Assembly (NCBI GenBank): GCA_051531975.1
Contig: JAOPTT010000002.1
Location: 473,968-537,967 of the forward strand
Reading direction: 5' to 3'
DNA: 64,000 nucleotides
DNA from: Spirochaetaceae bacterium
GTDB lineage: Bacteria > Spirochaetota > Spirochaetia > DSM-2461
Within the stretch, counting starts at the first letter, position 1. Each line of letters begins with the position of its first letter. Below the pieces are notes generated by a model. The model saw nothing but the letters and a program-made list of their open reading frames with translations, was not told where the DNA came from and did no database searches. Positions 7,091 through 34,458 of the stretch are shown here, in pieces. Position numbers and translations under genes: made by a program.

Positions 7091-7415
7091 TAGTTAGCCT
7101 TTGAATCTTGCTATAATTTTTAACAACTTTTACAAACTGGGATATAACATTAAAATCTTCTGTTGAATAACCATCTTTTCTAAAAGTAAGAGCCATTAGT
7201 GATTTATGTTTGTTCCTATCTACTTCATTAAAGTTACCAACAGAAACACCATAAAGATCTGAAAGTTTTAATAATATTTTTAAAGGAACAGATCTTTTCC
7301 CATTCTCATAATAACTAACTTCTTCCCTTGTAATAGATAAGAACTTAGCTATTTCTTCCTGAGTATAATTTAGTTTATTTCTATATTCTTTAATATTTTT
7401 TCCTATTAATCCCAT
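7080..7415 (-). CDS. XRE-family HTH regulator
   Basis: IKEYR..YTQEEIA..VSYYENGKR. Confidence 0.93.
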   Translation of the reverse strand: MGLIGKNIKEYRNKLNYTQEEIAKFLSITREEVSYYENGKRSVPLKILLKLSDLYGVSVGNFNEVDRNKHKSLMALTFRKDGYSTEDFNVISQFVKVVKNYSKIQRLTNAV

Positions 7416-17093: not shown

Positions 17094-17209
17094 TTATACC
17101 TACTATTTTTTTTAATTTATCATATGATATTATAAATAACCATCTATATTATCAAGCTAGTTTTCAATCTATAATAATTAAATGGTAAAAACCCTTTCCC
17201 CTTATTTAA

Positions 17210-19012
17210 TTATTGATTTATATAATTCTCAAAAGACGCGATAGCATCAATATAACCTAAAGTACTTCCCTTCATGTAATATTCCACGGCCTTTTTACTA
17301 TCCCCATTTTCCTCATAATATCTTCCAATCCGGGACATAGCATCATTATCTTCATGTTTAAGTGCTTTTTGATAAAGTTTAAACGCTTGCTCTTTATTTC
17401 CTTCTTTATATAACAAGTCACCTAGAAAACAATATGCTTCTGACTCCTCATTTTCTATCGCTAATTGATAATATTTCTTAGCACCTTCATAATCTTCATT
17501 TTCTTCAAGAAATTCTGCATATAAAATCATATCGGATTTATTTCCACATTCTATAGAATATAGATAAGTTTCTTTGATTTGTTCAATTTTTCCTTCTTTC
17601 TCGTAGAGTTCTACAAGCATCATTGTAGATAAATCATCAACACTTTTAATTCCTAATAAGTAGGTCTCTTTAGCCTTCTCTAACCATCCAAGTTTTTCAT
17701 AATAGCTACCTAGAAAGTAGTATGCATTTTCATCACCAATATCAATTGAAACTTGATAATATTTTATTGCTTTATCTATATTATTTTCTTTAGCATATAA
17801 TGTGGCTAGATTATAACTTGCAGATTTTTTATCGAACTCAAAATCTTTCAAAAAGTACTTTATGGCATTATCATAATCACCAACCTCCTCAAAAGCCCTG
17901 GCAAGAAAATACCATGAGGTTTCATTACCAAAATCTGCAGCTTGTTTATAATAAATTATAGCTTTATCATAATCCTCTTCTTCATAAAATATTTTACCAA
18001 GCCTGTATGATGAATACTCATTTCCATCTAATGAAGAAAGCTTATAATATCTTTTGGCAAATAAAATATTATCTTCCTCTTCAAATATGATACCTAGTTC
18101 CTTCATAGCTTCACCGTTAAAATCATTAGAGTACTTTAGAAAATATTCTTTTGCCTCTTGAGAATTACCTTCTTTCAGTAATAATTTACCCATAAAGTAA
18201 TAAGAACTATCACATCCTAGTTCTATTGCTTTTTTATACCATTTTTTGGCCTCTTCAAAATTATTTTCTTCTCCGTATATCTCTGCTAGTTTTTCTATTG
18301 AATTACAAAGTTCTAATTCAGCACTTCTTAAATAATAATTTTTTGCATCTTCTATTAAGTTTTCTTCAAATCCGATATTGCCCAGATAATATAAAGCAAT
18401 TGAGTCATCAGCTTTTGAAGCTTTGAGTAAAAACTCTTTTGCCTCTTGAACCCTGTCGTCGTAATAAAGATGTCTTCCCAAAAAAAGATGTGAACCTTCT
18501 ACATTCTGTGTAACAGCTTGTTTACAACTTTTAATAGCCTTTCCTTTCGCATCATTATCATAATAAAACTTAGTGAGAGTCATGATATACTTATCAAAAT
18601 CAAGTTCTGAAGCTTTTTCTAAATGCTTTTTAGCGTCATATTTAGAACCATGAGAATTATAGAGATTACTTAGTAAATAAAAGAGTTCAGCATTTTCTGG
18701 CTCTGTATCAATGCCTCTAAAGTAATATCTTTTGGCTTCTTCATAATTGTAATATTCATCTTCATATAGTTTAGCTAGTTCAACCATAGACTTTGTATGC
18801 CTTTGATCAGAAGCTTTTAAGAAAAATCTTTTAGCAGCTTCTATTTTTTCATTTTCTAAATACAAATTTCCTAAGGAGTACATAGAATCAATATCTCCAT
18901 TATTACTAGCTTTAAGAAGTGAAATAATATTTTCTTCTAATTGACGTTTGGTTTCTAACTCATTTTCTTGGTTGTTTTTTCGTTCTTCCATAATTATTAA
19001 CTTCCTTTTCAT
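17210..19012 (-). CDS. SEL1/TPR repeat protein
   Basis: Many ~32-aa repeats of the form A.Y.LG..Y..E....A..YY..A...G. Confidence 0.92.
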   Translation of the reverse strand: MKRKLIIMEERKNNQENELETKRQLEENIISLLKASNNGDIDSMYSLGNLYLENEKIEAAKRFFLKASDQRHTKSMVELAKLYEDEYYNYEEAKRYYFRGIDTEPENAELFYLLSNLYNSHGSKYDAKKHLEKASELDFDKYIMTLTKFYYDNDAKGKAIKSCKQAVTQNVEGSHLFLGRHLYYDDRVQEAKEFLLKASKADDSIALYYLGNIGFEENLIEDAKNYYLRSAELELCNSIEKLAEIYGEENNFEEAKKWYKKAIELGCDSSYYFMGKLLLKEGNSQEAKEYFLKYSNDFNGEAMKELGIIFEEEDNILFAKRYYKLSSLDGNEYSSYRLGKIFYEEEDYDKAIIYYKQAADFGNETSWYFLARAFEEVGDYDNAIKYFLKDFEFDKKSASYNLATLYAKENNIDKAIKYYQVSIDIGDENAYYFLGSYYEKLGWLEKAKETYLLGIKSVDDLSTMMLVELYEKEGKIEQIKETYLYSIECGNKSDMILYAEFLEENEDYEGAKKYYQLAIENEESEAYCFLGDLLYKEGNKEQAFKLYQKALKHEDNDAMSRIGRYYEENGDSKKAVEYYMKGSTLGYIDAIASFENYINQ

Positions 19013-19021
19013 GATGTAATT

Positions 19022-20734
19022 TTAAATTTGGCTTTTTATATATTCAATAATATCATTTTTATAATAAAAACCTGTATTTTTTATTGGACTCTTTTCATGT
19101 ATATCAATGGAATTAATATCTGCTCCTTTTTTAATTAGGAATTTAAAAACATCTATACTGTTACAAGCTGCATAATGTAATGGTTGCTTATCCAATATAG
19201 TTTCTGAATGAATATTTACATCATGATCTAGTAAATACTTTAGGACTGAATTACAACCCAAAAGTGCTGCAAAGTGAATAGGTTGTTCACCATCTGTATT
19301 AGTTGAATGTATATCTGCACCCTGCTCTACTAATAAATTGAAATTATTAGGGTCATCTGATTTAGCAGCAAAATGAATAGGTTGCTCACCTTTTAAGGTT
19401 TTAACATTTACATCAACTCCTTCCTCAATAAAATATTGTAAATTATCTAAAGATGAACTACACGCTGCCATGTGCATTGGTTGTTTTCCTTCAAAATCTA
19501 ATGATTTTATATCGGCTCCATTTTCAACTAGTAGCTTTATTGTATCAACTTCCATAAATAAGGATACGTCATGTATCAGCTGGTCCCCATCATTATTCTT
19601 TATATTAATATTTGTACCATTTTCAATTAGAAATCTTATAGCACCATCATCTTTATTAAAATCTGAAAAACGTATTGGTGTATTATTATTAATATTCAAT
19701 GAATTTATATTTGCTCCATTCTTTAATAGATACTCCAATATTTTAAGATCTCTATAATGTTGTACTGCATAATGAATAGGCTGTTTTCCTTTATCATCTT
19801 TTGACGAAATATTTCCACCATGGACTACTAGATACTTTAATATTTCCAGGTTATTAACAGCATAGTGTATTGGTAAACAACCATCGTTATCCTTAGAATG
19901 TATATCCGCACCCTGATCTATTAAATACTTAAAGTCAACGATGGAACCACTTGCTTGGTGATGAATTAATTGCATACCCTCATTATCTCTAAAATGAATA
20001 TCTGCGCCATTTTTAATAAGAATTTTAATAATCTCAAAATCGAATGTATCCATGAATGGAGCTTTACCATCAGTTCCTTTGGAATTAACATCAGCCCCTA
20101 AGTCTATTAAATACTTAAGAATATCAGTATTACTTAGGTTGTTAACAGCAAAATGGATAGGTTGTTGTTCATCAATTGATCTAGAATGAATATCAGCCCC
20201 CATACTTATGAGGTATTTTATAATTTCAATGCTTTCATTATCTGCACCATAATGAATTGGTTGATTTCTAAAGTTATCAATTGCAAAAATATTAGCACCC
20301 TTTTCTACCAAGTATTTAAATTTTTCTATATTCCCAAATGTAGCTGCAACATGTATAGGTTGTAAACCATTTTTATCTTTTGAGTCTATATTTGCACCTT
20401 GTTCAAGTAAAAATTTTAAGATGTCTAAATTATCATTTCTTGATGCATAGTGAACAGGTTGCTCATTTCTGCTATTTTGAGAATGTATATCAGCACCATT
20501 TTGTTCAAGATATTTAATGATACTAAGATCGTTATTCATTGCAGCTTCATGTATTAGGTTGTCCCAAGGATAAAAATATTCATTTGTAATGATCCTCTTG
20601 TTAATATCAAAGCCTTCTGATATCAAAAGTTTTAAATCTTCAAGTTCTATAGTATCTATCCTTTTTATTATTTTATAATCTTCTTCTGAAAACTTTTCAA
20701 TTGAGTTTATTTCTAATTCTTTTTTTTCTATCAT
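19022..20734 (-). CDS. Ankyrin repeat protein
   Basis: About 15 repeats of G.QPIH.A......KYL...GADI. Confidence 0.95.
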   Translation of the reverse strand: MIEKKELEINSIEKFSEEDYKIIKRIDTIELEDLKLLISEGFDINKRIITNEYFYPWDNLIHEAAMNNDLSIIKYLEQNGADIHSQNSRNEQPVHYASRNDNLDILKFLLEQGANIDSKDKNGLQPIHVAATFGNIEKFKYLVEKGANIFAIDNFRNQPIHYGADNESIEIIKYLISMGADIHSRSIDEQQPIHFAVNNLSNTDILKYLIDLGADVNSKGTDGKAPFMDTFDFEIIKILIKNGADIHFRDNEGMQLIHHQASGSIVDFKYLIDQGADIHSKDNDGCLPIHYAVNNLEILKYLVVHGGNISSKDDKGKQPIHYAVQHYRDLKILEYLLKNGANINSLNINNNTPIRFSDFNKDDGAIRFLIENGTNINIKNNDGDQLIHDVSLFMEVDTIKLLVENGADIKSLDFEGKQPMHMAACSSSLDNLQYFIEEGVDVNVKTLKGEQPIHFAAKSDDPNNFNLLVEQGADIHSTNTDGEQPIHFAALLGCNSVLKYLLDHDVNIHSETILDKQPLHYAACNSIDVFKFLIKKGADINSIDIHEKSPIKNTGFYYKNDIIEYIKSQI

Positions 20735-20908: not shown

Positions 20909-21817
20909 ATGTCAAAAAACTATGAAGGTGTTGCTGAAAGATTTGCAATAATCCTAAATGAATTAAATATATCAGAGAAAGTACATATAAATAGATTAGT
21001 AGAGGTTACAGGAAGTGATATTCGAAATATTCAAATGGACCTTAATCAGAGATTAAAAGACCCATTTAAAATAGAAACTGATAGAAAAGGGAATTACTGG
21101 TTAGATAAAAAATATCAGGGTTTATATACATCTGAAGAATTAAAAGAGTTTGCTAAAATTGCTGGAATATCAGAGATTTTTCCAGAATTCGATAGTAATT
21201 TCCTTAGAAGCATTATTGATAAAAATATCACCAATTCATTTTTAATTAGACCTCAGTATAAAGATAGGATATATGATAATCATAATTTCAAACTGTTAGT
21301 TGATGCAATAGATAATAGATGCAATATATATTTTAGTTACATAACTAAAAAAAGAAAAACATATGATGTTAGTCCATATAAATTAGTAAATATGTATGGG
21401 CATTGGTATCTGTGTGGAACTCATAATGGAATATTAAAAACGTATAAATTTTCAAAACTTGAGAATATCCATAAAAACAATAATAAGTTTGATTTTAAAG
21501 AATCGGTATTAAATGAGATTGAAAAGTCCGACACAATCTGGATTAGCAATAGAGATGATAGGCAAAATAAGAATATAAAAATAAGAACAAAACCGGAGTT
21601 CACACAATATTTCAAGGAAAATATAACGATACCTGGAGAAATTAATAGATCTGATGAAGAAGATGGATCATTAATTATTACTTTAGAAGCCAATGTTAGT
21701 TATGAAATATTATCTATTATCAAGTGTTGGATACCACGAATAGAAATTGTAGAACCAACTGAACTTAAAGTAGAGTTAAAAGAACAACTAACTGAGTATT
21801 TAAATGAATTAAATTAG
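20909..21817 (+). CDS. WYL-domain transcriptional regulator (wHTH-WYL-WCX)
   Basis: N-terminal HTH RNIQMDLN; VSPYKLVNMYGHWYLCG; WIPRIEIVEPTELK. Confidence 0.93.
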   Translation: MSKNYEGVAERFAIILNELNISEKVHINRLVEVTGSDIRNIQMDLNQRLKDPFKIETDRKGNYWLDKKYQGLYTSEELKEFAKIAGISEIFPEFDSNFLRSIIDKNITNSFLIRPQYKDRIYDNHNFKLLVDAIDNRCNIYFSYITKKRKTYDVSPYKLVNMYGHWYLCGTHNGILKTYKFSKLENIHKNNNKFDFKESVLNEIEKSDTIWISNRDDRQNKNIKIRTKPEFTQYFKENITIPGEINRSDEEDGSLIITLEANVSYEILSIIKCWIPRIEIVEPTELKVELKEQLTEYLNELN

Positions 21818-21938: not shown

Positions 21939-22673
21939 TCATATCTTTTTAATAATTATAATAAGTCTATTTATATCTTTTCTTAACTCTGTAATTTCAC
22001 CTAGATTACTTATCATATCATCAACAACAATTTCATTATTATCAGGATCACTAATGCAAAACTTATTTCCTACAGTATAAAAATTCCATTGATGTAAACC
22101 ATAATAACTAGCACATTCACCTTCTTTGTAGAAATGGTTTAAATAGAAGAAATGATCAGATTTTAATACCTTTAGACACTCTTTTATAGTGTAGATAGGA
22201 TTGTAAGTATGATCTATAGAATTCCTTGCATGTACTAAATCAAAAGAGTTTTCTTGAAATAAATCAGTTAGAGACTCTCCTAATCCATATTCAGTATAGA
22301 CCGGTGGAATCAGTTTCAAGTTATCTAGTATCCTTCTATATTTTGTAGCTTGCGGATCAATAGGAATTAATACAATTGGTTTATTCATGTAAGTTTTACC
22401 TACCTTACTAATTGGTCCTGCACCTATATCTAAGACTTGAGGAGGCGTTTCGTAATCATGATTATCTAATAGTTCGACAAGATCATTTTGAAGTGGTGAA
22501 TCTTCTTTAAAATGAACCGAAAGCTTCTTTATATTCTTTACTAAGTTTAATTCATGGAACTCAGATCCAACTAACAAAATAGCTAGCTTCCACTTAATGT
22601 ACTTGCTAAGACTTGACGGTATAAGATATGGGAAAATATATTTATATAAAATCAAATAAAGTCTATTTTTCAT
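21939..22673 (-). CDS. Class I SAM-dependent methyltransferase
   Basis: VLDIGAGP; SFDLVHARNSIDH; LKVLK. Confidence 0.88.
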   Translation of the reverse strand: MKNRLYLILYKYIFPYLIPSSLSKYIKWKLAILLVGSEFHELNLVKNIKKLSVHFKEDSPLQNDLVELLDNHDYETPPQVLDIGAGPISKVGKTYMNKPIVLIPIDPQATKYRRILDNLKLIPPVYTEYGLGESLTDLFQENSFDLVHARNSIDHTYNPIYTIKECLKVLKSDHFFYLNHFYKEGECASYYGLHQWNFYTVGNKFCISDPDNNEIVVDDMISNLGEITELRKDINRLIIIIKKI

Positions 22674-22688
22674 AAATTCTCTATCATC

Positions 22689-25676
22689 CTATTTCATAGG
22701 TTTATCTAGTTGTAGTAACCTAGAAACAATATCTTTTCTTATTCTTTTATTAGCATTACTCTTTGGATTTTTTTGATCATAAAAATATAGATAATCATCA
22801 ATTTCAACAACCTTATTAGCCATCTCTACAATTGGTAACATAGTAATCATGTCTGTTGCATAAGGAGAATAAGAATCATTAAAATAGAAATAATCTTCCG
22901 GTATTTTATCAAATAGTTTTTTAGCAAAACTAAGTAGATGTGCCCAGTTATTTCCAATATCAGGCTTTCTTAAGTCGTATAGCCTTCTTTGGTATATCTT
23001 TAGTGGTTTATCAGGTCTGTACATTCCTCCTAACACCACATCGGCTCCATTCTCAAACTCTTCAGATACCTGAGTAAGTACCTCACTATTAAAAAAAGCA
23101 TCATCAGAATCTAAAATTACAATTCTTGAGTGCGGGTTAATGCATATAGTTTTTATGGCAAAAATTAAGTTTTCTAATCTACCTTTAGCAAATGAATTTC
23201 TAATTAGTGTAATATTCTTTAGTAGCGGTTGGACCTTATATAGTAAATCCTTTTGGAATTGTAAGTTCGAAGCATCATCTATTATTACAGCTCCCCAGCT
23301 TCTATATGTCTGTGATTTTAGACTGGTAAAGAATCTTTCGAAATCTATTATATTCTGATTACCACCAATCGATATAACGATTAAATCTTCTTCTCTATGA
23401 GAATAGCTCCAATCGGTAAGAGATCCTTTCAGATTCCATTCATTAAACTGTGTAGAAGGGAAGTATCCCTGCTCTACCAAATCTTGTATTTGTAAATAAC
23501 TACTTTTGTCTACTTTATGTTTATTTTCTGGATGTATGCAGTAAGTTCTAGGATCACCACCCCTTAATGACTTCCAACCTGTTTCATTTTGAAATTTCTC
23601 GATAGACCTATGCCACATAAGTTTTAACAAATCACCATCCATACTATTTGGTAATGGTCTTATACTTTTTAATTTATCTAGATCTATTAGACAGAGAGGA
23701 ATATCAGGGGCATACTCCCCTTCTTCTGCAAAATAGGAAACAATAGGATCATCAATGTATTTAGCTGTATTAAGTCCACAACTTATAGTGTTACTCTCCT
23801 GTAAAGCTGATCTCATAGGTCCTAAATAGTCAATCCACTCTTCAGAACGGAAAACTAGCATATCTACATCCACTTGTAAAAGAAAAGATGTCCTTATATT
23901 GTCAAATGCCCATAACTGAGAAAATAGAGGTGCATTTGAACTTGTATGAGTTTTAGTTGAGTCTAAACAATACCAATTAATATATGTTTCAGCTATCTTT
24001 GTATTATCATCATTAGGTGCAATAATATATTCATCTATTATCTGCATAGATTTAAGTCTTTCTAAGGTATCTAATAAGTACGAATAATTCCCATCTCTAT
24101 ACTGTCTTAGAAAGTTGTTTTTTTTGGGATCGACCAAAACTATAATTGATTGAAAATTATGTCTTCTTCCTAATTGATTAGTTAAATGAACAATTTGATT
24201 TTCTACTAGATGACTATCCATAGCACATGTTTTTATTAAAAAAGTTGTATCAAGATAGTCATAAATGGCCTTAGTTGATGGACATTCATTCGAACTGATA
24301 TTATCCTTAAAAATTAAATCTAAAGTACTTCTATAAAAATCTTCAAAACCATAAATACATTTCAATTCTGTCTCATCATTTCTAAAAATATGAGTACGAA
24401 CCTTTAAAGTAAAATCATCATCTTCCAGGATAAACAGTTGATATAACCTTGCGCACATATCCCTAAAATATTTCATTTTGAAATTATTGATATCTAATCC
24501 TAAATCAATATAGATTAAATCCCCATTATCAGTAACTCTTATATTTTTATATGCGATATTATGGCAAACAACTCTGGCTTCATAACAATTTTTAATAAAT
24601 TCAGTAACTTTTATATTGGATATATTAGTAACTGTCTTAGTATTTATATAATCATAACTAATAGTTTGAGATCTATTATCCGCAGAAATATTAGGATAGA
24701 AGTGATCAAGTTTTTTATATAAATCTATCCTACTAGTTATGAAGTTAAATGAATCTCTTTTATATATTTTTTTTGTGACTCTTCCACACTCATAAGAAAC
24801 TATACCTTCACAACCCCATCCTAAGATGATCTTATCAGACTTAGGGATACTGCCATTAATCCAATATTTAGCAGATTTCATCAGCTTAGTTCTAATATCT
24901 TTATATAAATTATTACATCTGTTACTTGTTGTTATATCACCATTTAGGGTGTAATTAGAATAAATAACATCATCTAATAGAAGACCATATTTTTTATAGT
25001 TTATTAAAAGAAAAGCTAATAGGAAGTGATCTTCAGCACTGGCGATATCAGGATATAATAAACCTAAATCTCTATGAAGCCATAAATTGCATGAACATAA
25101 CTCAGCCTCACATTTTAGAATCCTCATATCATCTAACCTATTTAATAAATATTTATCATCTGTTAGATCTTGTATTGCCATGTTAGGAATTTCCAGAACC
25201 TTACCATTAATATTTTGCACATTCCCTGAAAGCACCCAGTAAATATTTCCTTTATTACGATTAATATGTTTGTAACAATTTTCTATTGAGTTCTCATCAT
25301 ACAAAGTATCATCTGAGTCTAATCTTGAGAACCAAATAGCATCTGGGAAAAACTCTTTAGATTTCTCTAAAAGATTATTTCTAACATTAAATACAGAATC
25401 AAAAACTCCACTTAAAATTACAACTTTAGAATTTGGTAATAGGTCAGCTATACAATCCTTCCAATTATCAGTTGAATCATCATCTGCAATAAGTAAGGCT
25501 ATATGTTTAGTGGAGATTTGATTTAATACTGACAATATTGAGTTTCGAACTGTTTTTATGGAGTTATGAACTGCCATGCATACTACGTGATCAGCATTAA
25601 AAACTCTACTATCACTCCATTCTAATAATCCTTTACAAGAAGAGTTTGAAGAAATCAAAATATCTCTACTTCTCAC
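22689..25676 (-). CDS. Multidomain protein: GT2 - kinase-like - GT-A-like - GT2
   Basis: N-terminal MAVHN..IADDDSTD..RLDSDD; LGWGCEGIV..HNIAYKNI..IYIDLG; central LQVDVD; C-terminal IIDDAS..ILDSDD. Confidence 0.78.
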   Translation of the reverse strand: MRSRDILISSNSSCKGLLEWSDSRVFNADHVVCMAVHNSIKTVRNSILSVLNQISTKHIALLIADDDSTDNWKDCIADLLPNSKVVILSGVFDSVFNVRNNLLEKSKEFFPDAIWFSRLDSDDTLYDENSIENCYKHINRNKGNIYWVLSGNVQNINGKVLEIPNMAIQDLTDDKYLLNRLDDMRILKCEAELCSCNLWLHRDLGLLYPDIASAEDHFLLAFLLINYKKYGLLLDDVIYSNYTLNGDITTSNRCNNLYKDIRTKLMKSAKYWINGSIPKSDKIILGWGCEGIVSYECGRVTKKIYKRDSFNFITSRIDLYKKLDHFYPNISADNRSQTISYDYINTKTVTNISNIKVTEFIKNCYEARVVCHNIAYKNIRVTDNGDLIYIDLGLDINNFKMKYFRDMCARLYQLFILEDDDFTLKVRTHIFRNDETELKCIYGFEDFYRSTLDLIFKDNISSNECPSTKAIYDYLDTTFLIKTCAMDSHLVENQIVHLTNQLGRRHNFQSIIVLVDPKKNNFLRQYRDGNYSYLLDTLERLKSMQIIDEYIIAPNDDNTKIAETYINWYCLDSTKTHTSSNAPLFSQLWAFDNIRTSFLLQVDVDMLVFRSEEWIDYLGPMRSALQESNTISCGLNTAKYIDDPIVSYFAEEGEYAPDIPLCLIDLDKLKSIRPLPNSMDGDLLKLMWHRSIEKFQNETGWKSLRGGDPRTYCIHPENKHKVDKSSYLQIQDLVEQGYFPSTQFNEWNLKGSLTDWSYSHREEDLIVISIGGNQNIIDFERFFTSLKSQTYRSWGAVIIDDASNLQFQKDLLYKVQPLLKNITLIRNSFAKGRLENLIFAIKTICINPHSRIVILDSDDAFFNSEVLTQVSEEFENGADVVLGGMYRPDKPLKIYQRRLYDLRKPDIGNNWAHLLSFAKKLFDKIPEDYFYFNDSYSPYATDMITMLPIVEMANKVVEIDDYLYFYDQKNPKSNANKRIRKDIVSRLLQLDKPMK

Positions 25677-27342
25677 AAACTTCTCCTTTTGAATATAGAT
25701 ACTTCCAAGTTTTTGATATAACTCTTTTATTCTTAGTTAAGCTAAGTTGTTTGGGTATATATTCTTGATTATTGAATTTTCCACAATATTTACAAAACTT
25801 ATTTAATAAATCTTCCATATTATCATCTGGTTTGGGAAGTTTTACTCTACCATAACTCCAATCAAAGAAACGATCGATACTACCTGACACAGCACAAGGA
25901 TAATACCTACCATTTGGAGACAATCCTAGACCGCAATAGTGAATATTTGAGCAACCATTTCTGTAGTTATGTAAGTGATGTGAAATTTTGTCCTTTGGAG
26001 CATCGTTAAAATTATAGAAATGATTTGTTTGCTTCATATGTTTTTTAGAATTTTCAATAAAGAAATATTTAGGAGTACTTAATAATTTCCTTTCAACATC
26101 ATTACCACTACCATTAGTAACAATGTCAATCTGAGTTGATGGGTATTTTAGCTTGTATTCTGTTAATATATCTAATACCTCAAAGTATTTTGAATGCAGA
26201 GTAGGTTCTCCCCCAAGGATACGAATTCTCTCCCAGACTCTATTATGCGTTATTGAGTCATGGACAAAATTTCTTAAAACCTGGGTATTCATCTCTATAA
26301 AAGATTTAATTTCATCACATGACCTATTACAACTAGTACAACTTAAATTGCAGTTATATGTAATATCAATTTCAATCTGTTTATGATTAACACTATATTT
26401 TCTTGGTACTAAAACATTGAGTTTAGATACTCTTATTTTAGACATAAAGTTCAGTGATCTATATTTTAAGTAATTTAATAGTTTTGATTTATTAGAGTTA
26501 TTTTTTATTGGAAAATAATCTTCTACATCAGAATTAATTGCTTCTAAAAAGAATAAAGCTCTTGGTACTAGAAACTTATCTTCAGCTCTATCCAAAAACC
26601 CCTGTTTTATCTCTTCACTCATTTTGGAGTTATGTTTTCTCCAAAATTGTAACAACCCAGCTTTCTTAGAAGGACTACCTTTTGTTGTTAATACAGTCCT
26701 ACCTGAATCAATTCTATAAAACATTGTTCTAACTCTAGTAACAGTACCTGAAAAGTTTTTATGTGAAATTGATCGTACTGCTAAGTCCCGATCATGTGTT
26801 GAAACTTGTTTCTCATCAAAACTTCCAACTTCTTTTAGAAAACTTAACTTCATGAATGTATTTGAACCCTGCCATCCAGGATTACCTTTTAAGAAATCGT
26901 TTACATCAATGTTTTGAACAATATTTTGACAACAACTAAAATTATCTTTAGTAACTTCAGTTCCACTAATAACTGTATTTATATCACTCTTTATATGACT
27001 TTCACATATGCTAATATGGTTATTGGTCCACTCATCATCATCATCTAAAATAGCAACCCAACCAGTTTCATCCATAAAATATAAAAAATCAATTCCAGTA
27101 TTCCAGTTTCCTGCCGCTCCAGGTGTATGAGAATTTTCTAAGTAAGTAATATTGAAATCAGAAAGCTCTTCTTGAAAAATCCTCTTATTAGCTGATTTAA
27201 CATCTTGATCAGTAGAATCATCTACTAAGACTACATAATCCGGTCTTCTATCTTGATTCAAAACTGATTTTAATGACCTATTTTTTAATAGTTCAGTTCT
27301 ATTAAATGTAGTTATTAAAACGTAGATCTTTTGTTTGTACAT
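25666..27342 (-). CDS. GT2 glycosyltransferase - radical SAM fusion
   Basis: ITTFNR..LVDDS..AILDDDD..HDRDL; then CNLSCTSC (CxxxCxxC), GGEPTLH, VTNG and a C-terminal Cys cluster (YPC..CKYC). Confidence 0.88.
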   Translation of the reverse strand: MYKQKIYVLITTFNRTELLKNRSLKSVLNQDRRPDYVVLVDDSTDQDVKSANKRIFQEELSDFNITYLENSHTPGAAGNWNTGIDFLYFMDETGWVAILDDDDEWTNNHISICESHIKSDINTVISGTEVTKDNFSCCQNIVQNIDVNDFLKGNPGWQGSNTFMKLSFLKEVGSFDEKQVSTHDRDLAVRSISHKNFSGTVTRVRTMFYRIDSGRTVLTTKGSPSKKAGLLQFWRKHNSKMSEEIKQGFLDRAEDKFLVPRALFFLEAINSDVEDYFPIKNNSNKSKLLNYLKYRSLNFMSKIRVSKLNVLVPRKYSVNHKQIEIDITYNCNLSCTSCNRSCDEIKSFIEMNTQVLRNFVHDSITHNRVWERIRILGGEPTLHSKYFEVLDILTEYKLKYPSTQIDIVTNGSGNDVERKLLSTPKYFFIENSKKHMKQTNHFYNFNDAPKDKISHHLHNYRNGCSNIHYCGLGLSPNGRYYPCAVSGSIDRFFDWSYGRVKLPKPDDNMEDLLNKFCKYCGKFNNQEYIPKQLSLTKNKRVISKTWKYLYSKGEVCEK

Positions 27343-27351
27343 TTTTTCCTT

Positions 27352-27966
27352 TTAGCTTTCTTGTTTTATTTTTTTTAAAAATGAATATCTTATTAGATAT
27401 AAAAATGGAGTTAATAGTATTGCAAGACTAAATTTGATAATTATCTGCCCCATTATCATTGGTAATATGTTAATAGAAGAATAAAAAGCAATAAAAATAA
27501 ATAATATTGAGTCTATAATCTGTGAAATAGTAGTAGAACCTATCGATCTCAACCATAGATATTTGTTGTTAGTGAGTCTTTTAAAGAAATGAAACAACCA
27601 AACATCATTATATTGTGAAACGATGTATGCAATTACAGAAGCTATAATTATTCTACTATTAGTACCTATAAATGAATCAAAAATTTCATGATCATTCCAA
27701 AATGGTGCTGCTGGTAGTACTCTACTAACATGAGATAGTACCATACTGACAAGTAAGACAATAAATCCCATTTGTACAACAGATTTTGAAACCTTAGTCC
27801 CATATATTTCTGATATAACATCAGTTATTAAGTAAGTTATAGAGTATGCAATAATACCTGCGGGAGCATAGAAACCTGCTATATCAATTGTTTTATATGC
27901 TATAAAAGATGCTGTTATTAATGATGCTGAAAATATACCAGTCAAGTAAAGAAGTTTTCCATCCAA
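27352..27966 (-). CDS. Queuosine precursor transporter (VUT/YhhQ/QPTR family)
   Basis: TDVISEIYG, RIIIAS..AYIVSQYND, WLRSIGSTTISQIIDS; TTG start with a GGAG RBS. Confidence 0.92.
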   Translation of the reverse strand: MDGKLLYLTGIFSASLITASFIAYKTIDIAGFYAPAGIIAYSITYLITDVISEIYGTKVSKSVVQMGFIVLLVSMVLSHVSRVLPAAPFWNDHEIFDSFIGTNSRIIIASVIAYIVSQYNDVWLFHFFKRLTNNKYLWLRSIGSTTISQIIDSILFIFIAFYSSINILPMIMGQIIIKFSLAILLTPFLYLIRYSFLKKIKQES

Positions 27967-28136: not shown

Positions 28137-29114
28137 CTATTTCTTAGAAACATTCTGTCCCTTAATTTTTACCAAACCACGCTTTTCAGCAGCCTCAACT
28201 AACTTTTTTATCTTAGAATATCCATATGAACCTATATTAATTTTATTGTCTTTCAATTTTTGAGCTAGTAAAGAAAAATTTACACAATCTTTATTCGATT
28301 TAGCTAGAAGAGAATTCAAATGTTTAATTACTAATTTAAAAATAACAGGAATTGTTTCTACATTTTTTCCTATTTGAATAATATGACCCTTATCTTCACT
28401 AATTAATTTAATATCACTATATCTTTTCGTTAATTCAATGATTAAACTCTTCCATGTTTTATGATTAAGATCTTTCTCATTAAAATTTTCATTTAATAAT
28501 TTAACCCTTACTTTTACTGCACCCAATAAAGGTTTTTTATTTTTTTGTAACAACATTGCTACAGATTCTCGAACATTTTCAGCGGCTATATCATATGTTA
28601 ATTTTACATTATCACTATTATCTTGTCCCAGACTATCTTCTTCATTATTATTATCATAATCATCAGGGATGAGATCTCTATAATCTTTGTATGTATCTGC
28701 TAATTGTAATAAATCTTCACTTGCTGATTGAGAATCACAAATAATAACAATCTCTTTACCATGCTTTCTAAGTGTTATCAGCAGATGTCTAAAATCAACA
28801 TCTCCAGTTACTATAATAAATTTAGTTATATGAGGATACAAAAATAAAACTTCTATGGCATTTGAAACTAATTTATGATCGCTACTATTTTTTTTAGCAT
28901 TTGGAACATGAATCATTTCAAATGATTTATCAGCTAAAATTTCTGTTGTTTTTGAAACTTGTGATTTTGTCCAGTCAGCAAAAGCCGTTGCTAGTGTTAA
29001 CTTACCCATTTCACTGACATAATCTAATAAACCATGAACAAAGTCAGAATCAGTACTTGGTGTTACATTTTCAACATCCCAAAATATCGCAATGTTATCT
29101 AATTTCTCTTTCAT
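28137..29114 (-). CDS. NYN-domain ribonuclease with C-terminal OST-HTH/LOTUS domains
   Basis: AIFWDVENV, KNSSD, IVTGDVDF; YGYSKIKKLV. Confidence 0.9.
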   Translation of the reverse strand: MKEKLDNIAIFWDVENVTPSTDSDFVHGLLDYVSEMGKLTLATAFADWTKSQVSKTTEILADKSFEMIHVPNAKKNSSDHKLVSNAIEVLFLYPHITKFIIVTGDVDFRHLLITLRKHGKEIVIICDSQSASEDLLQLADTYKDYRDLIPDDYDNNNEEDSLGQDNSDNVKLTYDIAAENVRESVAMLLQKNKKPLLGAVKVRVKLLNENFNEKDLNHKTWKSLIIELTKRYSDIKLISEDKGHIIQIGKNVETIPVIFKLVIKHLNSLLAKSNKDCVNFSLLAQKLKDNKINIGSYGYSKIKKLVEAAEKRGLVKIKGQNVSKK

Positions 29115-29150: not shown

Positions 29151-30857
29151 TTATAGATATACTATATTGTTTTGATTTAAATAATCTATAAACTGATCGG
29201 AGGTTGTAAATGGGAGATTAATCTGAAGGGATGAACTTATTTCATCTATATTAATATTTAATTCTGTATAATCTTTCTCCATAACAGCTTTATTTATTGA
29301 ATTACTGATACTTTTATATCTAAGTTGATTTTCAGCTAATTTTTTTAATGCAGTAGTATTAAATGAAGCTGTATTACTTTGAATCTCTTTTATTCTGTTA
29401 TTGAAAATTTCTTGTATTTTATTATGTCTTTTTTCTGCTTTAACACTAAAGAAATCCATGGAATCAAAGAAATATAGAAGTAAAGCTGTAATTAATGCCG
29501 TCAAAATAGATGACAAAATAATTGATAAAGGTTCAGTAATGCCTACTTTATTTAGTAATGCTTCAACTCCAACTCCAATTAAAAGAGAAGAAGAAGCAGC
29601 AATTAACTTTAATATAGCATCACCTTTTTTAGCTTTTGATAATTGACTATTAGGTTGTTTTAGGATTTTAAAAGCCTGACTAATTATTTTAAATCCTTCT
29701 TTAATTAATCGGACAACTTGTTTGAGCATACCAACTAAACAACTAATTATTGCACTAATGATACTTTTTATTATATTTTTTATGAAGTTTAAAACTTCCC
29801 CTTTCAAGAAAACTTCAGCTTCTATTAATACAAAATCTTTTACTCTTGAGAATCTATAAACTAAAGCATCAACCTTAGATGATAACCCTACACCATATTC
29901 TAATCCATTTTTAAAGCAATCATTCACCTCATAAAATAAAGGTTTAATCATAAATAAAACGACATTACCTAATGCAGCATCTTTAGAAGCTGATTTTGCA
30001 TTTTTTAGTAATACGCTTTGAGACTCTTTATCATTTATAACATTTTTTAATACAGCTTTATTCATATTATTATTTAGTTGTTTTTGAGCATTTTTTCCAA
30101 GTTTAATCATATTATTTTTATCATTATTATTAAGGTGTGCTGCTTTATCATCATTTTTAACATAATCTTTATTAGTATCATCTCTTTTTTCATTATTAGT
30201 TTGCCTACTAGTTACAGCCAGATTATATTCAGAATTTGCTATCTCTTTAATATCGTTTTCACTTAAGAGATAATTACCTTGTGTTTGGTTGAATAAATCT
30301 TTTAGTGGAACAATATGATCACTCTCAGCAGAATTGTTCACTGAAGCATTATGTTCTCTAGATAAAACTCTTCCAATCTCATATTCATCATTTATATTAC
30401 CATCTTTAGATTTATTATTCTTATAATTATCCATTTTATGTTTATTTTCATAATCTTTTCTTATATATTCGGAACGTTCAGTTTCTGTAAATTCTTTATT
30501 AAAATCACGTTGATTAATTTCTTCAGAATAGCTATCTAGAGAAGTAGTTATATTCCCTGATTTACTGTAAGTAAAGTTTTCACATTCATTTAATATCCTC
30601 GATGCTGTTACACCACTTTTCCCTCCAAGTTTGAATGCCCTAATCACACCATCAGCTAAACCTAAGAAAGTAGGTTTAACAACTGATTCTGTTATACTAC
30701 CACCATCTTTTTCAAATTCCGCATATACTTCTTCAATTATAGTTTGTGCCTCTTTCATGTCATGTAATTCACTTTCAATTAATAAAGATCCTAACTCTAG
30801 AGGTGAAGATGTTTCTATATCATGTTTTAATTTATCTATATCTATAATATTTTCCAT
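29151..30857 (-). CDS. Hypothetical protein with an HNH-like nuclease motif and C-terminal TM helices
   Basis: ESDHIVPLK..NLAVTSRQTNNEK; hydrophobic segments at about aa 360-380 and 415-465. Confidence 0.65.
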   Translation of the reverse strand: MENIIDIDKLKHDIETSSPLELGSLLIESELHDMKEAQTIIEEVYAEFEKDGGSITESVVKPTFLGLADGVIRAFKLGGKSGVTASRILNECENFTYSKSGNITTSLDSYSEEINQRDFNKEFTETERSEYIRKDYENKHKMDNYKNNKSKDGNINDEYEIGRVLSREHNASVNNSAESDHIVPLKDLFNQTQGNYLLSENDIKEIANSEYNLAVTSRQTNNEKRDDTNKDYVKNDDKAAHLNNNDKNNMIKLGKNAQKQLNNNMNKAVLKNVINDKESQSVLLKNAKSASKDAALGNVVLFMIKPLFYEVNDCFKNGLEYGVGLSSKVDALVYRFSRVKDFVLIEAEVFLKGEVLNFIKNIIKSIISAIISCLVGMLKQVVRLIKEGFKIISQAFKILKQPNSQLSKAKKGDAILKLIAASSSLLIGVGVEALLNKVGITEPLSIILSSILTALITALLLYFFDSMDFFSVKAEKRHNKIQEIFNNRIKEIQSNTASFNTTALKKLAENQLRYKSISNSINKAVMEKDYTELNINIDEISSSLQINLPFTTSDQFIDYLNQNNIVYL

Positions 30858-30875
30858 TGATTATCCTTATCAAGT

Positions 30876-31757
30876 TTAAGCTGCAAGTAAAACTTCTATC
30901 TCTTTATACTTCTCTGTTACAATAGCGAGGTCTTTTTTTTCAATCTCTACATTGGAATTACTTAAATACCTTAGTCGAGATAATTCTCCAAGTATAATCG
31001 CTACTGAAAAAGTAGCTCTAAGTTGTTCTAAAATTTGTGTAGGAAGAAAAGACGCATCTAATTTTTTATTCTTCATTGGGAAACCAAGCATAATATGGTG
31101 AGAGAGTAAATAATTAGTCGCGAAATCACAATCATCAATTAGATTTGAGAATATACTTATTAGATCATTAAAATATTTTTCAACTTGTTCTATAGATTTA
31201 ACAGTTAGTTTTATTTTATTAACCTCTGAATCCATTTTTGCATAAATTTCTTTCGCTTTTAATTCTTCTTCTTCAACACGTAATAGGGTTTCCTTTGCCC
31301 TTTTTCTTGTCAAAAATCCTAAAGTAAAAACAGCTTGAGCATTAGTTTTAAATTTATGATTATCAAAATCAATTAGAAATAAATCACTTTTACTTTTTAA
31401 TGATTCTTTCGTTTTAATTTCATAATCGAAGATTTCGCATATTTCGGTTTCTTTAATACCAATATTGTGAAAATTTTTCATTTTATCAGTAAATAAAGGG
31501 AAATATTGGTTATGAATTAGTTTTTTATTATTATTTATTGATTTAAGAGATGTTTTTATTTTCTGGGTTTCTATATCAATATCATTTTCGAACCTATTCT
31601 TTTTTAATTCAAATTCAGCTTTTAATGCTTCATATCGACGTTTAGCTTCATCATGATCCGTTTTACCAGAAAATGAACCCCAACAATTAGATACAACACT
31701 TTTAACTTTCTTGGTAGCAGCTGATACTTTTTCTTTTATCCAACCAAACAACCCCAT
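30876..31757 (-). CDS. Coiled-coil hypothetical protein with an amphipathic N-terminus
   Basis: MGLFGWIKEKV..; heptad-rich; translationally coupled to the upstream gene. Confidence 0.75.
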   Translation of the reverse strand: MGLFGWIKEKVSAATKKVKSVVSNCWGSFSGKTDHDEAKRRYEALKAEFELKKNRFENDIDIETQKIKTSLKSINNNKKLIHNQYFPLFTDKMKNFHNIGIKETEICEIFDYEIKTKESLKSKSDLFLIDFDNHKFKTNAQAVFTLGFLTRKRAKETLLRVEEEELKAKEIYAKMDSEVNKIKLTVKSIEQVEKYFNDLISIFSNLIDDCDFATNYLLSHHIMLGFPMKNKKLDASFLPTQILEQLRATFSVAIILGELSRLRYLSNSNVEIEKKDLAIVTEKYKEIEVLLAA

Positions 31758-32167
31758 TACTTCACCTTCTCATTTGTAATCAAACTATATCCATAATTAA
31801 TAATTGTGTTAAAATTATTTACCCATTCTACTGCTTCTTCTATAAGGGCTTCTGATAGATTCCATTCTTTAGCTATAACATTCAAAAAGTCTTTTTCTTT
31901 ATCAGCAAAAATATCATCACATAAAAGTATACCCAAAAGTTCAATCAATATAATTTTTTTTTCCTTCAGAGTTATATTTTTTAAATCATTTAATACATCG
32001 GAACTAGGAATCTCTCCAGGGATGTACTCATTAAGTTGTACTTCAGACTTTAGGTTATCAAAGATATTGAGTTCTTCATCTGCAATAACACCATCAACTA
32101 TAATTGAGTTATATGCTAATTGTAAAAAACTTTTATGATATTCTTTTTTTAACATTGTTAGATACAT
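31757..32167 (-). CDS. TerB-like protein
   Basis: FLQLAY..IVDGVIADEE and CDDIFADKEKDFL paired acidic motifs. Confidence 0.75.
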   Translation of the reverse strand: MYLTMLKKEYHKSFLQLAYNSIIVDGVIADEELNIFDNLKSEVQLNEYIPGEIPSSDVLNDLKNITLKEKKIILIELLGILLCDDIFADKEKDFLNVIAKEWNLSEALIEEAVEWVNNFNTIINYGYSLITNEKVK

Positions 32168-33108
32168 TAGTTAGCTACCCCACAATACCGTTTCTTTTCA
32201 GAACCATCTTTATTAAATTCTATTGATATATGAATATCACCATCTTTATAGATAAACTCATATCTTTTTGTTCCATCAATGGTGCTCACACTTTTAATAA
32301 GTGAATCTTCTTCATATATATTTTCAATTATTGAATTTGTAATATTATCTTCGATCCTGACGATTCTACTGTCATCACGAATAACTTTAATACTATCCGA
32401 ATCGATGTTACCATCCCCTAACAAACTACTATTTAATAATTTATTAAAAAATTCACATTGCAAGTTATTTGAAAAGTCTAGTACCATTAATGATTTGATT
32501 TGGTCCATTCTCAACTCATTTAAAACTTTCACTTTATCATGTTCATTACTTGAAAGGGCAGAGAATGAACGACTTATATTTTTGTTTTCTTTATCTATAT
32601 TCTCAATTAAACTCTCTAAAGTTATAAATCCTTTACCAATTTTATTAAACATCTCGTTAGACATATTATTTGATGAACTTAATGATTCAAAAAATGTTTC
32701 AAACTGTTCTGCAGTGGATTTACTGATAAATTCTAGATCGCTTTTTAAAACTGCAACACTTGAGGATACAGCATTACTAGATAGTTTTAAAGTTTCTAAT
32801 TTATCAACAATAGAATCATTTGAATTTTCTATTGTAGCTTCAATAAACTTTTTTGATGAATCGATACTATCAGATAACGTGTCAATTTTCTTAGAAATTA
32901 ACGCTATAATATTATTAGTATCTGTCAATTGTTTATTCACATTTAGATACTTTTCATGATAATCCAACTTTATATAAAAGATAAAAAGTATAATTGTTGG
33001 GATACACAACAACATTCCAATTATGGTTGTTATTTGTGGTTGTACTTTCATTACTGCTAAAACAAAACTTATTACAGTCAATGACAAACTAAAGATTGAT
33101 TTTTTCAT
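32167..33108 (-). CDS. Two-TM coiled-coil hypothetical protein
   Basis: Two N-terminal TM helices; GGAG RBS; TAATG coupling to the TerB-like gene. Confidence 0.75.
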   Translation of the reverse strand: MKKSIFSLSLTVISFVLAVMKVQPQITTIIGMLLCIPTIILFIFYIKLDYHEKYLNVNKQLTDTNNIIALISKKIDTLSDSIDSSKKFIEATIENSNDSIVDKLETLKLSSNAVSSSVAVLKSDLEFISKSTAEQFETFFESLSSSNNMSNEMFNKIGKGFITLESLIENIDKENKNISRSFSALSSNEHDKVKVLNELRMDQIKSLMVLDFSNNLQCEFFNKLLNSSLLGDGNIDSDSIKVIRDDSRIVRIEDNITNSIIENIYEEDSLIKSVSTIDGTKRYEFIYKDGDIHISIEFNKDGSEKKRYCGVAN

Positions 33109-33717: not shown

Positions 33718-34458
33718 TTACTCCTCCTTCCTTTGTTTAATTCTATAAGAATCTCCACTAATGGAGAAAACTCTAGCATGGTGTAAAAGCCGATCTAACA
33801 TGGCCGTTGTCATTATCTCATCGCCCATCATCTCAGACCACTGATCGAATCCTTTATTTGATGTTATAATTATTGATGATGTCTCATATAATTCGCTAAC
33901 TAAGTTAAAGAATAAGTTAGCTTCTTTCCTATCAATAGGTGTGTATCCTATTTCATCAATAATCAGTAGAGATGATTTCATTATTCTGTTTAATCTAAAT
34001 GCACTCGAACGCTGGTATTCAGATGTTTTAAGTAATTTAACAAGATTAGATGCTCTTTCAAAACATACTTTGTAACCACTCTCTAAAGCTTTCAGCCCAA
34101 GGCTAACAGATAGATGAGTTTTTCCAACTCCCGGAGGTCCTAAAAACATTAGATTTTCATTGTTATCAATCCATCTAAAATCTAGTAGATTATTTATATC
34201 TTCTTCCAGGATCCCATCTACTCTGGAGAAATCAAAAGCTTCCAGTTCTTTAATAGTTGGTAGATGAGCCCCAGCAAGGTTTCTCTTAAGTTTTCTCTCG
34301 TTTCTATCATCTATTTCTATACTGAGGAATTCTTTTAAACATTCCAAATATGACATTTTATTATTTTGTGCTCTATCCAATACAGCATCTAAAGATTCGA
34401 GAATACCTTTTAGTTTTAAAGTTGATAATGCATTTTGGCAGTATTCTAGATTACTCAT
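33718..34458 (-). CDS. istB: IS21 helper ATPase IstB
   Basis: GPPGVGKT, LIIDEIGY, IITSN, LDRLLHH, GDSYR. Confidence 0.97.
   Translation of the reverse strand: MSNLEYCQNALSTLKLKGILESLDAVLDRAQNNKMSYLECLKEFLSIEIDDRNERKLKRNLAGAHLPTIKELEAFDFSRVDGILEEDINNLLDFRWIDNNENLMFLGPPGVGKTHLSVSLGLKALESGYKVCFERASNLVKLLKTSEYQRSSAFRLNRIMKSSLLIIDEIGYTPIDRKEANLFFNLVSELYETSSIIITSNKGFDQWSEMMGDEIMTTAMLDRLLHHARVFSISGDSYRIKQRKEE

Follow-up and report, generated by a model that had tools for sequence, protein, structure and literature searches.

A conserved glycosyltransferase and radical SAM gene module beside a queuosine-precursor transporter in a spirochaete defence island, with a tentative link to 7-deazaguanine metabolism

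A tightly packed four-gene cluster

We examined a gene cluster in a 64,000-nt stretch of Spirochaetaceae DNA (contig JAOPTT010000002.1). This whole stretch is referred to as the window, and positions are those of the window unless a locus label (L followed by a number) precedes them; such labels denote related loci fetched for comparison. The cluster consists of four open reading frames (ORFs) on the minus strand, 27966-21939, whose proteins are labelled P0001 to P0004. P0001 and P0002 are separated by 9 nt, P0002 and P0003 overlap by 11 nt, and P0003 and P0004 are separated by 15 nt. The genes and the domains of their products, which include glycosyltransferase (GT) and radical S-adenosylmethionine (SAM) domains, are as follows.

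27352..27966, minus strand: P0001, Vut_1/YhhQ-type queuosine-precursor transporter, 204 aa, TTG start; an accessory paralogue
25666..27342, minus strand: P0002, fusion of a GT2 glycosyltransferase and a radical SAM domain, 558 aa (from Pfam, homologues and AlphaFold)
26560..27333, minus strand: P0002 GT2 (GT-A) domain, residues 4-261, with an invariant DDDDEW motif
25774..26397, minus strand: P0002 radical SAM core and C-terminal Cys-rich part, residues 316-523, with C331/C335/C338 and C464, C470, C483, C517 and C520
22689..25676, minus strand: P0003, four-domain protein, 995 aa, GTG start (from AlphaFold and family search)
24852..25598, minus strand: P0003 N-terminal GT-A domain, residues 27-275, by fold match
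24267..24851, minus strand: P0003 putative kinase-like domain, residues 276-470, by motifs and sub-threshold profile matches
23427..24263, minus strand: P0003 middle GT-A domain, residues 472-750, with invariant Q601, D603 and D605
22692..23393, minus strand: P0003 C-terminal GT2 domain, residues 762-995, with invariant D856, D858 and D859
21939..22673, minus strand: P0004, class I SAM methyltransferase, 244 aa, by Pfam; an occasional accessory of the module

A first-pass annotation had described four tightly packed genes with these domains, and the ORFs, their spacing and the Pfam and NCBIfam searches all agreed with it. P0001 matched Vut_1 (PF02592) with an E-value of 2.1e-47 (161.8 bits, cut-off 27.2) and the NCBIfam model TIGR00697, 'queuosine precursor transporter', with 153.9 bits (cut-off 50.95), while the E. 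coli-type equivalog PRK11212 was not reached (61.8 vs 252). By profile score P0001 belongs to the Vut_1/YhhQ family of queuosine-precursor transporters, and it is predicted to import preQ0, preQ1 or queuine. Pfam matched GT2 in P0002 (E 4.7e-13) and in two stretches of P0003 (E 1e-19); Radical_SAM was matched in P0002 with an E-value of 2.3e-5 and 25.1 bits, under the cut-off of 29.5. P0004 matched Methyltransf_31 (28 vs 27 bits) and Methyltransf_11 (24.2 vs 21.2 bits). All core proteins were free of Pfam membrane domains. The two motifs singled out at first pass, CxxxCxxC in P0002 (CNLSCTSC) and HNIAYKN in P0003, were both present in the translations.

The spacing of the four genes suggests that they are co-transcribed. 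A promoter scan of the cluster returned 72 promoter-like sites compared to the 92 expected from shuffled sequence, fewer than expected, and no terminator-like site was seen between the four genes in the promoter/terminator scan.

Domain architecture of P0002 and P0003

A homologue search with P0002 gave 37 full-length proteins at 37-43% identity, all derived from metagenomes or metagenome-assembled genomes (MAGs) and bearing uninformative names; PF04055 was precomputed for all 37. The AlphaFold model of P0002 had a mean predicted local distance difference test (pLDDT) score of 85.3 and a predicted template modelling (pTM) score of 0.84. In the 28 aligned homologues the three cysteines of CNLSCTSC (C331, C335 and C338) were invariant, as were the five further cysteines in the C-terminal part (28/28 sequences). 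The cluster motif together with the profile match places P0002 in the radical SAM superfamily, as judged from its sequence. No SPASM profile in Pfam or NCBIfam matched it. A QueE-like identity for the radical SAM part was considered and rejected, as the similarity ended at the cluster motif. When residues 1-270 of the model were used in a fold search, the closest solved structure to the GT2 domain was AvpGT; the identity was only 16-18%, and AvpGT was tied with the unrelated GT2 enzymes SpsA and WrtF.

The AlphaFold model of P0003, built with 36 homologues in the alignment, had a pLDDT of 86.9 and a pTM of 0.78. Fold matches to GT-A enzymes covered residues 27-275, 472-750 and 762-995, and each of these three domains contained invariant acidic motifs. 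The modelled GT-A folds with their acidic DxD-type motifs place these domains among the GT2/GT-A glycosyltransferases, and the model supports the order GT-A, kinase-like, GT-A, GT-A. For the last two GT-A domains (residues 400-995) the best two-domain fold matches were K4CP, heparosan synthase and LARGE1, with further fold matches to TarS, TarP and RmlT.

The region between the first two GT-A domains (residues 276-470) appears kinase-like, an assignment drawn solely from motifs and sub-threshold profile matches. In alignment A4 a GxGxEG motif, a beta3-type Lys, a catalytic-loop Asn and the Asp of DxG were invariant in 36/36 sequences; in P0003 the residues kept are the Gly-rich loop, Lys302, Asn378 and Asp391. 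A profile of the region matched AKT2, Aurora A and CDKL5 with E-values of only about 0.1, and these matches fell exactly on the Gly loop, the catalytic loop and DFG. ABC1 was weakly matched in 7 of the 36 P0003-like members. The position of the catalytic-loop Asp is occupied in P0003 by Asn373 (HNIAYKN), and Asn stands there in at least 90% of the 36 sequences (consensus NIKRxN); P0003 additionally lacks the catalytic-loop Lys. The missing Asp had led to the suggestion of a pseudokinase. The substitution is real and occurs across the family, and the suggestion therefore holds for the whole family.

GT2 and P0003-like genes form the core of a widespread module

A single-protein locus search of genome contigs with P0002 found nothing; an alignment-based search then found loci. 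The genome set was obtained by an alignment-based scan of one genome per species with recruitment by the GT2 motif and yielded 80 loci. The metagenome set was obtained by a scan with the P0003 alignment (P0003-motif recruitment) and yielded a further 80, giving 160 fetched loci, in which some missing parts are contig ends. GT2 was present in 80/80 genome and 73/80 metagenome loci, and a P0003-like protein in 66/80 and 80/80, respectively. The two genes were adjacent in 66/80 genome and 73/80 metagenome loci. A radical SAM domain was present in 43/80 genome and 54/80 metagenome loci, and all three parts occurred together in 41/80 and 52/80. Over both sets together, the GT2 and P0003-like core was counted in 146/160 loci, with a radical SAM gene alongside it in 95 of these 146. 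The P0003 family comprised 423 representatives (50% identity) at E<=1e-30 among 1.84 billion proteins. Arrangements varied, with fusions of GT2 and radical SAM, separate genes, and, in archaea, fusions of P0003 with a second radical SAM domain. In L089 all parts are fused into a protein of 1580 aa (GT2, P0003, radical SAM), and giant proteins of 1650-2040 aa contain the last two GT-A domains. Record titles name as hosts Vibrio, Photobacterium, Shewanella, Marinobacter, Pseudomonas, Comamonas, Zoogloea, Methylovulum, Myxococcus and Corallococcus, as well as Planctomycetota, Fibrobacteres, a Bacteroidales MAG and marine group II archaea. These results establish GT2 and the P0003-like protein as the core of a conserved, previously undescribed module, usually with a radical SAM domain and sometimes with a methyltransferase.

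The view that the gene set is undescribed was borne out by literature queries on YhhQ/GT/radical SAM, deazaguanine, SLOG, conflict and QueC clusters, which found no description. No paper was found on YhhQ with a glycosyltransferase and radical SAM, and nothing relevant appeared in titles and abstracts on radical SAM, glycosyltransferase, 7-deazaguanine and defense.

The cluster is accessory in the genome from which the window comes, since no orthologue of P0002 was found among 40 relatives of that genome. In a FastTree phylogeny of 115 P0003-like proteins the window sequence grouped with L210 and an archaeal clade, and L089 branched nearby. A phage origin was rejected: viral contigs gave only weak GT2-domain matches with alignment A1 (best E 1e-10) and none with alignment A2. 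We propose that the window copy is one instance of a horizontally mobile, cytoplasmic enzyme module.

The marine group II archaeal type (L013, L016, L222 and L224) is a fixed gene string of an unknown 255-aa gene, a NYN gene, a UDP-glucose-dehydrogenase-like gene, the GT2-radical SAM gene, P0003 with a second radical SAM domain, and an NAD-dependent epimerase/dehydratase. A GT4 gene and genes for histidine or dual-specificity phosphatases are found nearby.

QueC, preQ0 genes and transporters recur at the module

The absence of tgt, que and dpd genes from the window, remarked on at first pass, was confirmed, as none of these families turned up in Pfam scans of the 47 window ORFs. Elsewhere, a deazaguanine gene lies at the module in 9/160 fetched loci (8 distinct, as L160 = L161), which together with the window come from five lineages. 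QueC or a whole preQ0 operon accounts for eight of these loci and Vut_1 for one more, the genome locus L089 (1/80 genome and 0/80 metagenome loci), where it lies 3 nt upstream of the 1580-aa fused module. The proposal that a deazapurine is involved received independent support from this comparison, through the recurrence of QueC, a preQ0 operon or Vut_1 in five lineages; such genes are confined to 9/160 loci. The transporter itself did not prove to be a conserved member of the system, as 159/160 fetched loci are without Vut_1, and the methyltransferase is likewise occasional.

The QueC genes are closely joined to the module. In L029 and L081, which share 69% nucleotide identity, the P0003-like gene runs at its 3' end into or directly up to QueC (Pfam E 1e-61 to 1e-66), and the same arrangement is found in L154, L160/L161, L165 and L171 (local hidden Markov model (HMM) E 1e-69 to 1e-74). 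The two QueC-linked groups form separate clades on the P0003 tree. A 6.3-kb segment carrying GT2-radical SAM, P0003 and QueC is common to L160, L165 and L171 at 93-94% nucleotide identity, and the flanks of these loci are otherwise unrelated, save for short weak or repeat matches. Therefore, QueC moves with the cassette. In L154 the GT2-P0003-QueC cassette is enclosed by copies of UbiD_C at 1-495 and 5102-5620, a layout that looks like the result of an island inserting at the ubiD 3' end with duplication of that end. L024 is the sole locus with a full preQ0 set; here a string of hsdR, queC, queE, queD and folE2 converges on and abuts the module.

In the window's genome (98.5% complete) TGT, QueA and PTPS are present together with two Vut_1 genes, and QueC and QueF were not found. 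With TGT and QueA and without QueC and QueF, the host must therefore import a precursor, and for queuosine it seems reliant on the salvage of preQ1 or a related base. P0001 is 30% identical to the genome's other Vut_1 copy (contig C16) and 38% identical to the module-linked Vut_1 of L089. No orthologue of P0001 was found in the 40 relatives (best 39%), and three genomes of the same genus have only the other Vut_1 type (29-33% to P0001). These comparisons identify P0001 as an acquired, extra and non-orthologous paralogue.

Accessory genes of the module

P0004-like methyltransferases were found at 1/80 genome and 3/80 metagenome loci. Homologues with 44-50% identity to P0004 adjoin the module in L025, L230, L194 and L184, other methyltransferases lie beside it in L034, L051 and L060, and one is fused into it in L058. 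These counts bear on whether the four window genes form a functional unit at all. Their spacing might reflect compaction in an AT-rich island, the methyltransferase and transporter acting separately from the GT genes, as would fit the finding of the transporter with the module in 1/160 other loci and of P0004-like methyltransferases in 4/160. We regard this as very unlikely. The four genes share one strand with a 9-nt gap, an 11-nt overlap, a 15-nt gap and no terminator-like site between them; the same methyltransferase family stands at the module in four distant loci, with a methyltransferase fused into the module in another lineage; and Vut_1 is found again immediately upstream of the module in L089.

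The most frequent accessory is a protein of 250-315 aa without a Pfam match, designated cl2, which occurs in 23/80 genome and 31/80 metagenome loci (54/160), as for example at L022:8199-8948, L025:13803-14555 and in 52 other loci. It has the invariant motifs GxG..FN, PS.G and HNWL.ERR and is often paired with a radical SAM protein or a methyltransferase. Its motifs (GNG..RFN, PSSG, HNW) make cl2 a putative sialyltransferase-like protein; Pfam gave no match. A UDP-glucose-dehydrogenase-like gene accompanies the module in 8/80 genome and 20/80 metagenome loci, and a SLOG LDcluster4 gene in 7/80 and 0/80. SLOG proteins, found alongside a single lineage of the module, are predicted in PMC7159879 to release bases from nucleotides.

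Two neighbours of the window cluster also recur at other copies of the module.

20909..21817, plus strand: HTH-WYL-WCX regulator, convergent with the module (WYL E 1e-8, WCX E 1.6e-7, PADLOC WYL E 4.6e-24)
28137..29114, minus strand: NYN-domain protein, 325 aa (NYN E 3.7e-24), 170 nt from P0001

WYL regulators were found at 4/80 genome and 2/80 metagenome loci (L038, L050, L056, L065, L175 and L191), and the window WYL gene is a possible regulator of the module whose membership is uncertain. The window NYN protein has a candidate C-terminal LOTUS/OST-HTH domain (an Atlas lead with a high score). By local HMM a NYN gene was found at 3/80 genome and 0/80 metagenome loci; in the archaeal loci L012, L013 and L016 it precedes the module at a distance of two genes upstream, and in L194 Pfam located a NYN gene about 5 kb downstream. 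The window NYN protein was considered as a member of the system and downgraded to uncertain, being 28% identical over 111 aa to the NYN protein of L013.

Defence and mobile-element surroundings

The cluster had been placed between a WYL regulator and NYN, restriction-modification (RM) and Gabija genes, and the Pfam and PADLOC scans agreed with this placement. The further defence and mobile elements of the window are listed below.

29151-30857, minus strand: PADLOC candidate PDC-M40B protein (E 5.6e-23)
33718-36008, minus strand: intact-looking IS21 insertion sequence (IS) pair, IstA-like (517 aa) and IstB (246 aa), by Pfam; it separates the PDC-M40B block from McrBC
36495-39531: McrBC (Pfam/PADLOC scans)
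39580-45678: type I RM (Pfam/PADLOC scans)
47096-50525: Gabija (Pfam/PADLOC scans)

The PDC-M40B gene belongs to a four-gene run at 29151-33108 (minus strand), directly upstream of NYN, in which it is preceded by ORFs of 293, 136 and 313 aa without a family. A PDC-M40B homologue and a WYL gene lie within a few kb of the module in L065 and L175. Beyond the WYL gene, at 14117-20734 on the minus strand, are a 570-aa ankyrin-repeat protein, a 600-aa TPR protein and two proteins of 494 and 499 aa without a Pfam or NCBIfam match; the ankyrin repeats and the 29% GC genome hint at a host-associated lifestyle. An M78 peptidase and HTH_3 pair (ImmA/IrrE-like) is located at 6377-7415 (minus strand) and a lone Fic-like C-terminal fragment at 11705-12103 (plus strand). 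No tRNA genes or bounding repeats marking a cassette were found in the window.

To survey other copies of the module, about 340 flanking ORFs were scanned with Pfam; in the genome set, ORFs within 4 kb were grouped by similarity and each group was represented by a single ORF. In L025, L194 and L184 the module has hsdR on one side and (Fic-)hsdM-hsdS on the other, and in L024, L026, L031, L065, L160 and L175 it adjoins type I RM genes. In L045 (6750-16008) it lies between a McrB-like AAA_5 gene and McrC, with JetD beyond. Its other neighbours include BrxL and UvrD (L041), GmrSD (L043, L064, L175), Cas3/Cse1 (L061), AbiE and an integrase (L052), HipA (L064) and a reverse transcriptase (L059). 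Mobile elements are represented by Tn7 TnsD/TnsE with a KAP NTPase (L022), TniQ with Csy3 (L163; Tn7-like or CRISPR-associated transposon (CAST)-like), TrwC relaxases (L160, L165), RepC (L074) and several IS elements. IS21 is also found within or at the edge of the module in L048 and L184. The module thus sits mostly among restriction, defence and mobile genes, a statement of enrichment that is qualitative. Polysaccharide flippase, polymerase and export families (Wzx/Wzy, ABC/Kps, Wza) were found neither in the window ORFs nor in the flanking ORFs by Pfam. The first-pass annotation would have been contradicted if the GT genes occurred mostly without the transporter in ordinary polysaccharide loci. 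They do occur mostly without it, but in restriction, defence and mobile contexts and not polysaccharide ones. Its suggestion of a possible anti-phage role draws on the neighbourhood; in PADLOC the four proteins matched no family, save for a weak pVip hit in P0002 (E 8.9e-10, residues 323-412), which covers the generic cluster-binding core.

These surroundings also raise the question of a nucleic-acid target. The enzymes might act on a deazaguanine already within nucleic acid, by glycosylation of queuosine or preQ in tRNA or by action on DNA, with the NYN nuclease discriminating modified from unmodified RNA. The host has TGT and QueA; NYN genes stand near the module in the window, in three archaeal loci and in L194; the window NYN protein may carry an RNA-binding LOTUS domain; and RM-like placement, such as that between hsdR and hsdM, would suit a mark on nucleic acid. 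Vertebrate QTGAL and QTMAN are enzymes that glycosylate tRNA queuosine. Glycosylated queuosine exists in animal tRNAs according to PMC12518689, a precedent for such a target. We nevertheless consider this explanation quite improbable. No TGT- or DpdA-like ORF was found in the 160 loci by phmmer (E<1e-4) or in the Pfam scans of the flanks. The window's genome has a single TGT, on another contig, and insertion into DNA would therefore be without an enzyme. Neighbours of the module include GmrSD and McrBC, systems directed against modified DNA, and none of the core proteins showed a domain for binding nucleic acid. The linkage to NYN is also weak, given the low identity noted above and different architectures.

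A proposed pathway and its alternatives

From gene order, domains, conservation, mobility, neighbourhoods and the gaps in the host's pathway we infer a substrate, a series of reactions and a biological role. Our favoured explanation, held tentatively and with somewhat less than even confidence, is a cytoplasmic pathway that glycosylates, modifies and methylates a 7-deazaguanine-derived substrate. This substrate would be preQ0, 7-carboxy-7-deazaguanine (CDG) or preQ1, as the base, nucleoside or nucleotide. The base would be supplied here by the accessory importer P0001, because the host is without QueC or QueF, and elsewhere by module-linked QueC or by a folE2-queD-queE-queC operon. The GT domains would then attach and extend sugars; the kinase-like domain may bind a nucleotide or phosphorylate a sugar in an unconventional way; the radical SAM domain, with its putative auxiliary Cys cluster, may oxidise, dehydrate or rearrange the sugar or nucleoside; and the methyltransferase would cap the product, which would be a glycosylated deazapurine nucleoside-like metabolite. 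Gene context makes a role in conflict, with phages or competitors, the most likely.

Separate steps of this kind have precedents. Passages of PMC7439116 describe huimycin as preQ0 carrying an O-methyl group added by a SAM methyltransferase and an N-linked sugar added by a GT, and passages of PMC11959488 describe AvpGT as a GT2 that 3'-O-glucosylates the 7-deazapurine nucleoside tubercidin. In the accessible part of bioRxiv 10.64898/2026.04.15.718813, genes for preQ0 and CDG are often without enzymes for insertion into nucleic acid.

Several observations weigh against a deazaguanine-derived substrate, and many of them fit an alternative in which the module glycosylates something else, such as a protein, a teichoic-acid-like polyol phosphate or a glycosaminoglycan-like chain, the transporter and QueC being chance neighbours or the result of island packing. 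We rate this alternative as unlikely, yet as one to be taken seriously. Within the DNA examined, 151/160 fetched loci carry no deazaguanine gene. The module-linked QueC is the sole QueC of the L024, L029 and L081 genomes, and the Vut_1 of L089 is the sole one of that genome; these copies may be housekeeping genes that are merely adjacent. No phosphoribosyltransferase or TGT that would join a base to ribose or nucleic acid was seen in any locus. The two-domain core of P0003 resembles polysaccharide polymerases (K4CP, heparosan synthase, LARGE1), and the fold matches as a whole, chondroitin polymerase, heparosan synthase, LARGE1, TarS, TarP and RmlT, would suit a glycan, protein or polyol phosphate acceptor. 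The UDP-glucose-dehydrogenase-like genes equally fit a uronic-acid glycan on another acceptor, and together with epimerase genes they accompany archaeal and some bacterial forms. The recurrence of cl2, with its presumed sialyltransferase-like character, points the same way. Informative relatives are lacking as well: the radical SAM half of P0002 gave only generic N-terminal radical SAM matches among NCBIfam models and Atlas clusters, the kinase-like domain lacks the catalytic Asp of active kinases and has no telling relative, and P0001, P0003 and P0004 match no family in PADLOC-DB 2.0.

If the target were of this other kind, P0001 could be a second preQ1 importer serving tRNA queuosine in a salvage-dependent host, which needs preQ1 import anyway; this, too, we think doubtful. 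Flippase, polymerase and export families were not seen in the scanned flanks, and the core proteins have no Pfam membrane domains. QueC overlaps the stop of a core gene in two separate clades and travels in the 6.3-kb cassette, and the acquired paralogue P0001 lies only 9 nt from the GT2-radical SAM gene. These points argue against an unrelated target.

A more far-reaching form of that pathway would be a new class of immune system, in which infection triggers the conversion of a 7-deazaguanine precursor, brought in by YhhQ here and supplied by QueC of the cassette elsewhere, into a glycosylated, radical-SAM-edited nucleoside analogue that poisons phage nucleic-acid synthesis or marks host RNA. 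We think it improbable that the module works in this way. So read, it would do with deazapurines what viperin-type chemical defence does with other nucleotides, and type I RM loci, Tn7/CAST-like transposons and conjugative elements of bacteria and marine archaea would carry it as cargo, a picture that we offer as a long shot.

If the tailoring pathway is real, it would extend the use of 7-deazapurines widely outside tRNA and DNA insertion and actinomycete antibiotics, across several bacterial phyla and marine group II archaea and the 423 representatives of the P0003 family. It would provide a first function for a conserved radical SAM subfamily and for an Asp-less kinase-like domain, and it would explain the second YhhQ in a host without QueC and QueF. 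Should the defence reading also hold, it would amount to a new chemical defence built on sugar-modified nucleobases.

Comparison with known systems

Prokaryotic viperins (pVip), among the defence systems that produce modified nucleotides, resemble the module in placing a radical SAM enzyme in a defence island. P0002 differs from them in its score against the NCBIfam viperin model (29.7 bits vs a cut-off of 180), its C-terminal Cys-rich part and its fusion to GT2. Dpd islands for 7-deazaguanine modification of DNA likewise hold deazaguanine genes in mobile, restriction-associated islands. To our knowledge they contain no glycosyltransferases, and none of the fetched loci yielded the defining DpdA (TGT-like) or DpdB, nor did the genome yield a second TGT.

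Like residues 400-995 of P0003, K4CP, PmHS2 and LARGE1 have two GT-A domains in one chain. Superposition over both domains gave a root-mean-square deviation (rmsd) of 16-36 A, and the domain arrangement therefore differs. P0003 has, beyond these enzymes, a third GT-A domain and a kinase-like domain, and no capsule export genes lie nearby.

AvpGT, NucGT and ScaGT are Streptomyces GT2 nucleoside 3'-O-glycosyltransferases, of which AvpGT glucosylates tubercidin (7-deazaadenosine). In contrast to P0002, AvpGT consists of a single domain and serves an actinomycete antibiotic pathway, with no radical SAM fusion and no P0003-like partner. Clusters of the huimycin and dapiramicin type are alike in their logic, in which preQ0 supply is followed by glycosylation of the free base and methylation (HuiG, HuiC), as described in parts of PMC7439116 and 10.64898/2026.04.15.718813. 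Huimycin-type clusters combine preQ0 genes with a GT and a methyltransferase; the window has the GT and the methyltransferase, with an importer instead of the preQ0 genes. The GTs of the huimycin family are reported as PF13439 (GT4) in the accessible part of 10.64898/2026.04.15.718813, whereas those described here are GT2. The main text of that preprint mentions neither 'radical SAM' nor 'YhhQ'. Huimycin-type clusters are without a radical SAM enzyme beyond QueE, a kinase-like domain or a multi-GT protein. They are also actinomycete clusters, whereas the module described here is cargo of defence islands, mostly without preQ0 genes. What is new here would be deazapurine tailoring with new enzymes, in new hosts and in a new context, with a minority chance that the module represents a new kind of defence system.

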